Shown here one piece after another: positions 1-2,430 of a DNA stretch of 24,832 nt. The stretch is from a virus. Taxonomy: Duplodnaviria > Heunggongvirae > Uroviricota > Caudoviricetes. Every line of letters begins with the position of its first letter. The first letter of the stretch is position 1. The DNA lies in IMG/VR virus record IMGVR_UViG_2737471828_000007; one strand, given 5' to 3'. A model generated the notes under the pieces. The model saw nothing but the letters and a program-made list of their open reading frames with translations, made no database searches and was not told the origin of the DNA. The translations under genes were made by a program, and so were the position numbers.

Positions 1-282
1 GGTGTCATCGACGGAATGCCAGCATGGATTGATATTCCACCGCCAACTCATGAGGAACAAATTGCCGCAGCCGAACTGGAAAAGCAGCAATTGATTAATC
101 AGGCCAACGATTATATGAACAGTAAACAATGGCCTGGTAAAGCGGCGATTGGTCGCCTGAAAGGTGAGGAACTGGCGCAATATAATTTGTGGCTGGATTA
201 TCTGGACGCACTGGAGCTGGTCGATACTTCCGGTGCGCCAGATATTGAATGGCCTACACCTCCGGCAGTTCAGGCCAGATGA
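1..282 (+). CDS. Alternative tail fibre assembly protein, C-terminal part only (5' end outside window)
   Basis: Frame is open from base 1; the C-terminal motif (LDYLDALELVDTSGAPDIEWPTPP) parallels the C-terminus of the minus-strand tail fibre assembly protein; the two genes converge and overlap at their 3' ends. Confidence 0.7.
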   Translation, partial: GVIDGMPAWIDIPPPTHEEQIAAAELEKQQLINQANDYMNSKQWPGKAAIGRLKGEELAQYNLWLDYLDALELVDTSGAPDIEWPTPPAVQAR

Positions 283-862
283 CATCCGGCGCGGTGCTGG
301 TATCTGTTGCCGTCACCGCGTCAATGTAATCCAGCACAGCGTTAAGGCGGGTTGTTTCTGCCTGCGTCAGTTTACGTCCGGCCTGCAATTTCAGTTGAAT
401 CAGACTGATGGAAGCCATAGCAGCATCAATCAGCGACTGGCGCTGTGCTTCTGCCGCGTCTACTGCGCCGCTATATTGTGCCTCGGTATCGGTCACCCAT
501 TTCTCTCCATCCCATTTATCGTATGGCGTTAATGGGGCGATCGTGGTGGTTCCTTCCGGGTATTCTCCCAACTGTGAAATAGTCACAGCTTTGCCAGTAG
601 CCGTGCTGTAAACGGTTTCGCCGCGATGGTCTGCAACGTATTCCCAACCGGTCAAATCAGCCGTCCGGCAGACAGCAAAGCCGTCCTTTTTGCTGATTGG
701 CGCATCCACGCATGAATTGCCTGGAACGCCAACGCCAACGGGAAGATATTCTAACGATGCGGAAGTAAACTCCATCGTTTCTCCGTTGTAGTTGTAAACA
801 GTGATAAAGCCAGCTTCCGTGGCGAACCCGTTTTCATCCAGGGTGATTTCTTTTGTGGTCAT
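254..862 (-). CDS. G: Tail fibre assembly protein (P2 gpG-like)
   Basis: 202 aa ORF immediately downstream of the tail fibre gene; conserved C-terminal tail-fibre-assembly motif; ATG confirmed at 862..860. Confidence 0.85.
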   Translation of the reverse strand: MTTKEITLDENGFATEAGFITVYNYNGETMEFTSASLEYLPVGVGVPGNSCVDAPISKKDGFAVCRTADLTGWEYVADHRGETVYSTATGKAVTISQLGEYPEGTTTIAPLTPYDKWDGEKWVTDTEAQYSGAVDAAEAQRQSLIDAAMASISLIQLKLQAGRKLTQAETTRLNAVLDYIDAVTATDTSTAPDVIWPELPEV

Positions 863-2430
863 TATACTGCCCTTACAATGTAGTTGAATGCAATGTTGCG
901 CGGACGGGTTTCTGAACCACCCACAGCGACGGTTGATCGAGTAGGCTGGTTTACTATTTCCCCGCTGACGTCAGCCGTAACGACGTCGAACCCCGCCGTA
1001 GGATCAAAGTTTTTCAACCCCCATGAACGGTCAAAGTTATGGCTGTGGGATTTAAACGCATCGCCCTGAGTAGACAGCAAAACGCGACCATTATCCGCAC
1101 CGCGCCCGTCATCCCAGCCGCGAATGAATTCACCGCGTAAATCAGGCAATTTATTTGTCGGGTAAGCCTTTGCCAGTTCCGGGTATTCTTCAGCAGAAAA
1201 ATCCGCACCATTGCATTTCAGCCAGCCTGTTGGCGGTGTGGCTGAAGGCCACGGAACAGGCACCCCAACAGGTAATGCTGAGCCTTCTCCCAAACCAAGG
1301 TAATCAAGAACGCCCTGAGTGCTGGTTTTACCAAGAATGGCACGTCCAACACTTGTCAACGCGGTTAACGCGGCACGATCTGCCCCTGTAAAATATGGGA
1401 GTTTATCTGCTGATGTGGCAAGCTCCGCCAGCGCCGTCAGGGTGGCATCCTTCGATTGCTTACCCGCAAGCGCGTTAGTCATGGTGGTCGCAAAATTCGG
1501 GTCATTGCCCAGCGCCGCAGCCAGTTCGTTCAGCGTGTTCAGTGCATCAGGTGACGAATCTACAAGTGCGGCAATCGCGGCCATAACGAAAGCCGTGCTT
1601 GCGATCTGGGTACTATTAGTCCCCTGTGGCGCAGTTGGCGTCGTTGGCGTTCCGGTCAGTGCCGGGCTGTTTAATGGTGCTTTCTTGTTCGTTTCATCCA
1701 TTACCGCCTTAACAGCTTTTGGTGTCGCTGCCAGCGTTTCAGACGTGCTGTTCGTGGCGCTACTGAGCTGAACAATCCCTTTTTGTGTAGTGGTGCCGTT
1801 CTGGGCGGTATATTTCCCGTTAGCCAGGTCATATGCAGCCTTAACCGCTTTCGGTGTTGCGGCCAGTGTTTCTGATTCACTGTTAATTGCACTGCTTAAC
1901 TGAGTAAAACCTTTTGCGGTCAGCGAGGCGTCCGGGTGACGTCGTGACTGTTCGTGCTCTGAGATTTTATCATCCACATATTTGCGGGTTGCCAGAACCA
2001 CAGACGGGTCGATTTTCAGCGTGATAGCTTCGGTGTTCGTGACAACCAGAATCATGCGGATAGTCTGGGTGCGTCCACTGCCTTCCTGCAACTGCGGTTT
2101 GTACGTTTCCGGGCAGTTTGCCACCGCAATGAGTACACCTTCATCATCATAAAGACCAATCTCACGGATCCAGAATCCTCCCTCGTTTTCAGGGATGATT
2201 TGCTCCGCAATAATCTGGCTCTGATTGTTAGGGTCAACACTCAGAAGATTCAGCGGTGCAATGCGTTTCTGGTTAATCAGTTTTGTTTGTGCAGGGTCTG
2301 GTGTTGGTAACACACCATTTGCATCACCAACGGCCATTTGCGTCAGATTCAGCTTACTGCCGAGCATCGTCGCGTTAGCCAGTCGTGCTGCGCCCTGATT
2401 AGTCAGAATGGCGTAGTATTTCACTGTCAT
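862..2430 (-). CDS. H: Tail fibre protein (P2 gpH-like)
   Basis: 522 aa; P2 H-like N-terminus ([20 protein letters not shown]...), internal repeated [13 protein letters not shown] motif; position between I and G. Confidence 0.9.
   Translation of the reverse strand: [522 protein letters not shown]

Follow-up and report, generated by a model that had tools for sequence, protein, structure and literature searches.

At the left end of a 24,832-nucleotide (nt) stretch of tailed-phage DNA (IMG/VR record IMGVR_UViG_2737471828_000007; the whole stretch is called the window below), two tail-fibre assembly genes run towards each other and overlap. The question raised by this locus is whether the pair marks an invertible segment, as an earlier note on the window had proposed, and where the remainder of such a segment might be situated. 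With high probability, window positions 1..1297 are part of an approximately 1.8-kb invertible segment of the Gin/Cin/Pin/Hin type, belonging to a P2-like (Peduoviridae, Gemsvirus-like) prophage of Escherichia coli. The evidence consists of paired inverted crossover sites, an adjoining invertase gene, a fibre frame that remains open upon inversion in silico, and relatives in which the segment is found flipped. The Mu G or P1 C type of layout suggested in the earlier note is thereby upheld at the level of the element family.

Fibre and chaperone genes in the window

Genes in the window were taken from the list of open reading frames (ORFs) and from the sequence, and domains were assigned by Pfam. 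Related loci carry L numbers. The features of the locus are given below in window coordinates unless another contig is named (aa, amino acids).

1..282, plus strand: 3' end of G', a tail-fibre assembly chaperone (last 93 codons; Pfam Caudo_TAP)
254..862, minus strand: G-like tail-fibre assembly chaperone, 202 aa (full-length Caudo_TAP profile, E = 8.3e-31)
862..2430, minus strand: P2 H-like fibre, 522 aa (Phage_tail_fib, E = 1.4e-62; Phage_fiber_2; Collar)
862..1296, minus strand: Hv, the variable C-terminal fibre tip (about aa 379-522; Collar PF07484), inside the predicted invertible segment
1299..2430, minus strand: Hc, the constant N-terminal fibre part (aa 1 to about 378; PF12571 and Phage_fiber_2 repeats), outside the predicted segment
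2427..3068, minus strand: P2 gpI (Tail_P2_I, E = 3.5e-53)
1285..1310, no strand: fibre-proximal crossover site, TTCTCCCAAACC AA GGTAATCAAGAA, a hix/gix-like 26-mer
1..1297, no strand: in-window part (right-hand two thirds) of the predicted invertible segment of about 1.82 kb, converted from L016 coordinates
-531..-506, window-equivalent (L016 8937..8962; L007 11369..11394), opposite strand: second, invertase-proximal site, TTCTCCCAAACC AA CGTTTTCGTCTT, found by sequence search
-1185..-586, window-equivalent (from L016): serine invertase, 199 aa, 68 nt past the second site (PF00239 and PF02796)
L007 9565..11385, no strand: inverted block in the alignment against L011

The G' fragment (16..282, plus strand) has a frame that is open from base 1 and stops at 282. 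Its 93 aa match the Caudo_TAP profile (PF02413) at positions 49-130 of 131 (E = 9.8e-27). G' and the G gene on the opposite strand are convergent and have the 29 nt between 254 and 282 in common, so that both the ORFs and the Caudo_TAP matches agree with the arrangement described in the earlier note. The same 29-nt overlap is annotated at every related locus inspected (L001, L002, L011, L012, L014 and L015), showing that it is a conserved feature and no accident. In the orientation seen in the window, G is co-expressed with the current fibre tip and G' is silent.

The fibre has an N-terminal Phage_tail_fib domain (PF12571), two fibre repeats (Phage_fiber_2) and a Collar domain (PF07484) at aa 389-436, which together identify the 522-aa protein as P2 H-like. 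The genes for P2 gpI, J, W, V, S and R lie upstream of H, giving the gene order V-W-J-I-H-G. The N-terminal domain of H, the preceding gpI and gpJ and the following Caudo_TAP chaperone are those of a P2-like (Peduoviridae) tail-fibre module. Hc is colinear across genomes of both orientations. It supplies the start codon, and presumably transcription as well, to whichever tip is joined to it.

The crossover site in H, which had escaped inspection by eye when the earlier note was made, has the 12 + 2 + 12 build of the hix and gix sites, with an inner half-site at 1285..1296, the core dinucleotide AA at 1297..1298 and an outer half-site at 1299..1310. It encodes the residues LDYLGLGE (H aa 375-382) and is situated at the junction of the repeat-containing shaft and the Collar-type tip, where the constant part of H gives way to the variable part. 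The site occurs once in the window, where 0 occurrences are expected by chance. It resembles the gix site of Mu, which reads TTATCCAAAACC TC GGTTTACAGGAA in the Mu record. It also resembles hixL, which we take to be TTCTTGAAAACCAAGGTTTTTGATAA, likewise with an AA core.

The flank beyond the contig end

Related contigs were found by exact-protein look-up of G and of H. One of these (L017; GCA_000798035.1, JUCW01000032.1) matches the window at 100% identity throughout the 8430 nt compared and has the same first position, indicating that the window starts at a contig end and not at an arbitrary cut. The L016 contig (GCA_050788665.1) is 100% identical to window 1..8430 and runs 5.1 kb further left, while L004 and L007 show 99.96% identity across 10,862 nt. 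The earlier note had placed the other half of the segment and the invertase to the left of the window, and it is there, in L016, L004 and L007, that a Gin homologue and a second variable region of H were found.

The complete G' has 146 aa (L016 8149..8589). Only about 430 nt separate it from the invertase gene in L016 and L007, and all of these are accounted for by H'v, an alternative fibre tip (Pfam Gp53-like_C) that is an open frame without a start of its own within the segment and is promoterless. The two tips, Hv (140 aa) and H'v (114 aa), have no detectable similarity to each other, and G and G' are 34% identical over a region confined to their C-terminal 82 aa.

An intact invertase ORF of 199 aa, with Resolvase (PF00239) and HTH_7 (PF02796) domains, is present in L016, L007 and L004. 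The L007 protein aligns over residues 1-185 with Mu Gin (PDB 4m6f, E = 3.3e-91; likewise PDB 3uj3, E = 3e-91), and its Ser9, in the motif IGYIRVSTNDQ, is aligned with a position that is S in 4m6f and A in 3uj3. Neither the invertase nor the chaperones had a specific NCBIfam model, every match being far under its cut-off.

The invertase-proximal site is inverted with respect to the site in H and has the same AA core, the 14 nt of inner half-site plus core being identical in the two. L016 and L007 (also L004) each contain TTCTCCCAAACCAA exactly twice, the copies being inverted relative to each other, and a search of L007 with TTCTCCCAAACCAA allowing at most 2 mismatches gave 2 matches vs 0.15 expected. 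Inverted 26-bp sites, which the earlier note had recommended looking for, are thus present. Searches for a third crossover site with the 14-nt inner half and core (at most 2 mismatches) gave only the two in L007 and the one in the window. A degenerate pattern, CNAAACCNNGGTTTNG, likewise revealed no third site in L007 or the window, its frequency being not above chance. The presence of exactly two sites in L007 and L016 indicates a simple two-state switch and no shufflon. Across 14 loci the inner half-site and core, TTCTCC[C/T]AAACC AA, are invariant save for the one C/T, and the outer half-sites are specific either to the fibre backbone or to the invertase flank.

The contig ends within G', at a distance of 282 nt from the stop codon, and not at a crossover site. 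Among complete E. coli genomes that match at all, the median number of matching places is 2 and the maximum 12, for which reason the break is more likely to reflect a repeated G'/H'v cassette elsewhere in the genome than a mixture of orientations.

RefSeq lists the silent H'v as a separate protein, named "gp53-like domain-containing protein" or "virion structural protein" (L001 6441..6839, L002 6441..6839, L014 10514..10912). In these three loci the start called for H'v lies outside the invertible segment, past the crossover site. The stand-alone annotation is an artefact of the invertible layout.

The two orientations and the competing explanations

When the segment of L007 or L016 is inverted in silico between the core dinucleotides, Hc is joined in frame to H'v and forms an open 496-aa fibre. 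The start of G' is then located 3 nt past the stop codon of this fibre. The resulting order, Hc-H'v followed by G', agrees with the earlier proposal that inversion exchanges the variable part of the fibre together with its chaperone.

The flipped arrangement also occurs in nature. A 755-nt query spanning the flipped Hc-H'v junction matched 7 complete E. coli genomes in a single piece, with 100% coverage and 98.7-98.9% identity. The annotation of TUM1880 and DETEC-S589 (L011 and L012) has Hc-H'v and G' on the plus strand, G and an Hv fragment on the minus strand, and then the invertase. Upon pairwise BLAST alignment of L007 with these two genomes, colinear, inverted and again colinear blocks are obtained, and the block junctions, at L007 9565..9579 and about 11385, are the two sites. 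The junction in the orientation of the window, Hc-Hv, is covered to at least 80% by only 2 records among complete E. coli genomes, so that in this collection the backbone seldom carries the Hv variant of the window. Exact-match scans returned 0 occurrences of the Hc-Hv junction in both genome_contigs and viral_contigs, and 0 of the flipped junction in viral_contigs.

These observations can be accommodated in the following mechanism. The 26-bp site (1285..1310) would split H so that Hc is outside the segment and Hv inside. The segment would consist of two tip-plus-chaperone cassettes arranged tail to tail, Hv-G and, on the other strand, G'-H'v. The Gin-like invertase, encoded just past the far site, would carry out strand exchange between the inverted sites, whose AA cores are identical. 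The orientation seen would yield the 522-aa Hc-Hv with its Collar-type tip together with the 202-aa G, and the flipped orientation the 496-aa Hc-H'v with its Gp53-like_C tip together with the 146-aa G'. The virion population would as a result carry two receptor specificities, and the two tips presumably confer different host ranges.

Several points weigh against this mechanism. The window contains neither the invertase nor H'v nor the second site, and the source contig ends at window position 1. Their presence in the source strain is probable from the identical and near-identical contigs, given which its flank left of the window is very likely intact. The outer half-site of the invertase-proximal site, CGTTTTCGTCTT, fits the half-site consensus poorly. 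A degenerate motif scan of the 5' part of the invertase gene found no convincing Fis-binding enhancer. Over its first 240 nt the gene shares 70% identity with Mu gin, and conservation is strong in two stretches, nt 19-41 and nt 71-113. The scan of both genes gave shared candidates only at +71 and +94, which lack the 48-bp spacing that we take known enhancers to have. Inversion would presumably be dependent on Fis. Lastly, the flipped genomes carry a somewhat diverged Hv/G cassette (91% identity, partly not alignable), and consequently the comparison demonstrates both orientations for the element family and not within one clone; active switching in the source strain is something we infer from sequence comparison.

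Might the segment be a frozen relic, unable to flip in the source strain following the loss or inactivation of its invertase or second site? Three loci (L003, L006 and L009) hold the same Hv-G-G' cassette without an invertase or second site and with an insertion sequence (IS) after G', and the window's own contig stops inside G', leaving its flank unseen. However, both sites and an intact invertase ORF are present in the L016 contig, identical to the window over 1..8430, and in L004 and L007 with their 99.96% identity over 10,862 nt. Furthermore, the remaining prophage genes in the window appear to be complete, tail genes through gene A and the integrase. A relic is thus unlikely. A multi-cassette, shufflon-like system, in which at least three crossover sites would serve more than two alternative tips, is very improbable. 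Systems with multiple sites are known, as exemplified by the Min system of p15B. A locus with three inverted repeats and four variants has been described in a P2-like prophage (PMC4272514), and in L005 three additional small ORFs separate G' from the invertase, but the window-matching L007 and L016 have only two sites, and H'v fully takes up their short interval between G' and the invertase. The window taken by itself, having neither an invertase nor a second site, might be thought to contain no inversion system at all, the chaperone genes having become neighbours by chance, for example through tail-to-tail insertion of a moron or a second fibre locus. This is hardly credible in view of the paired inverted sites, the adjacent Gin homologue and the in-frame fusion on inversion, and it is refuted at the level of the element family by the natural flipped copies, two of which have their breakpoints at the sites. 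A two-state Gin-type switch is therefore the preferred explanation.

Known switches, shared cassettes and the remainder of the prophage

Mu has a G segment with the same overall layout, Sc / gix / Sv-U / U'-S'v / gix / gin. In both elements the sites are 26 bp long and built as 12 + 2 + 12, each alternative tip has its own chaperone, and the invertase ATG follows the site at nearly the same distance (67 nt in Mu, 68 nt in the prophage). The segment of the prophage is shorter (about 1.8 kb as against 3 kb) and has AA/TT instead of TC/GA as its core dinucleotide. The prophage sites share only 14 nt of inverted repeat, whereas Mu repeats the whole 26-bp gix at both ends; we take the Mu gix repeat to be 34 bp. 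The chaperone genes overlap by 29 nt in the prophage, while U and U' of Mu are 28 nt apart, and the backbone is a P2-like fibre with the H N-terminal domain (PF12571), not Mu S. The Gin, Cin, Pin and Hin invertases, including Fin of Fels-2, form one functionally interchangeable family. The C/Cin segment of P1 and the P/Pin segment of e14 have the same architecture as the prophage switch, although their fibre backbones differ from that of the prophage, and Hin of Salmonella controls a flagellin promoter and no fibre tip. At one related locus, L010, the invertase-proximal site is TTCTCCCAAACCAACGTTTATGAAAA, a type that we take to be that of e14 pix.

Closer likenesses are found among the Peduoviridae. 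The records of Escherichia phage 500465-2 (Gemsvirus, NC_049343) and of "phage P2" of O157:H43 T22 (NC_041848) have the layout annotated with a "DNA invertase". The P2-like E. coli loci alike have I, H, G, G' (convergent, with the 29-nt overlap), H'v and the invertase, and the annotated Peduoviridae share the inner half-site and core given above. The Hv/G cassette of the window differs from those in the phage records, the best of which reaches 91% identity and spans 66% of H through U. Inversion phase variation was established by sequencing and polymerase chain reaction (PCR) in two P2-like prophages of enteropathogenic E. coli (EPEC) E2348/69, one locus being a simple two-state switch and the other having three inverted repeats (Goldberg et al. 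2014, PMC4272514). Inversion is thus experimentally demonstrated in the EPEC prophages and predicted for the copy in the window. A 2024 preprint describes invertases with inverted neighbouring genes in a receptor-binding-protein hotspot of P2-like phages.

The cassette itself is shared with other tails. Window 1..1301, comprising the end of G', G and Hv, is 99.5% identical to cassettes at six loci, one of which (L005) has a different P2-like fibre and the others (L003, L006 and L008-L010) Mu/SfV-like tails with a 241-aa Collar fibre. In all six the homology stops at window 1301 or 1302, 3-4 nt past the core dinucleotide. It is conceivable, if doubtful, that the segment Hv-G-G'-H'v spreads horizontally as one module, the crossover site serving as its joint. 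On one reading, an invertase acting between the sites of co-resident prophages moves cassettes among unrelated tail backbones; an alternative is ordinary homologous recombination at the conserved motif coding for LGLGE. The sharp boundary of homology at the crossover site, seen across unrelated tail backbones, illustrates clearly how receptor-binding cassettes are exchanged as modules. The Shigella/SfV-like prophages L003, L006 and L009 (11163..12131) have the IS (DDE_Tnp_1) directly after G', lack H'v as well as the second site and invertase, and carry the O-antigen modification genes gtrA, gtrB and gtr further on. They appear to be frozen versions of the switch.

Elsewhere in the prophage, the tail block FI-FII-E-E'-T-U is on the strand opposite to H/G and D/ogr (L007 12075..17660; also L001, L002, L004, L011, L012, L014 and L016). 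The FI-U block is thus inverted relative to the canonical P2 order, which L005 and L015 show. The block FI-FII-E-T-U was considered as a second invertible region and rejected, there being no flanking inverted repeats or gix-like sites and the order recurring in 500465-2. Since this phage, classified as a Gemsvirus by the International Committee on Taxonomy of Viruses (ICTV), has the same inverted FI-U order, the inversion looks like a fixed, genus-level rearrangement.

Window 15553..16831 (minus strand) encodes a 319-aa ParM/StbA actin-like ATPase (StbA_N, E = 1e-81; ParM C-terminal domain, E = 4e-68) and, within the same interval and strand, an StbB-like "plasmid stability protein" (E = 9e-25). 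Both adjoin a homologue of the P2 gene-A replication protein at 16908..19760. They constitute a plasmid-type partition cassette inside a P2-like prophage. PADLOC gave no match among the neighbouring cargo ORFs tested within 13726..16831.

For annotation, the locus means that the fibre gene has two alternative 3' ends and that the "gp53-like domain" fragment beside the invertase is a silent cassette and no pseudogene. Assemblies of such strains may present either orientation. The element is an ordinary Gin-family host-range switch, of which P2-like E. coli prophages already provide known cases. Bet-hedging host-range switches of this kind have been understood since Mu, P1 and e14, and the locus raises no new question.

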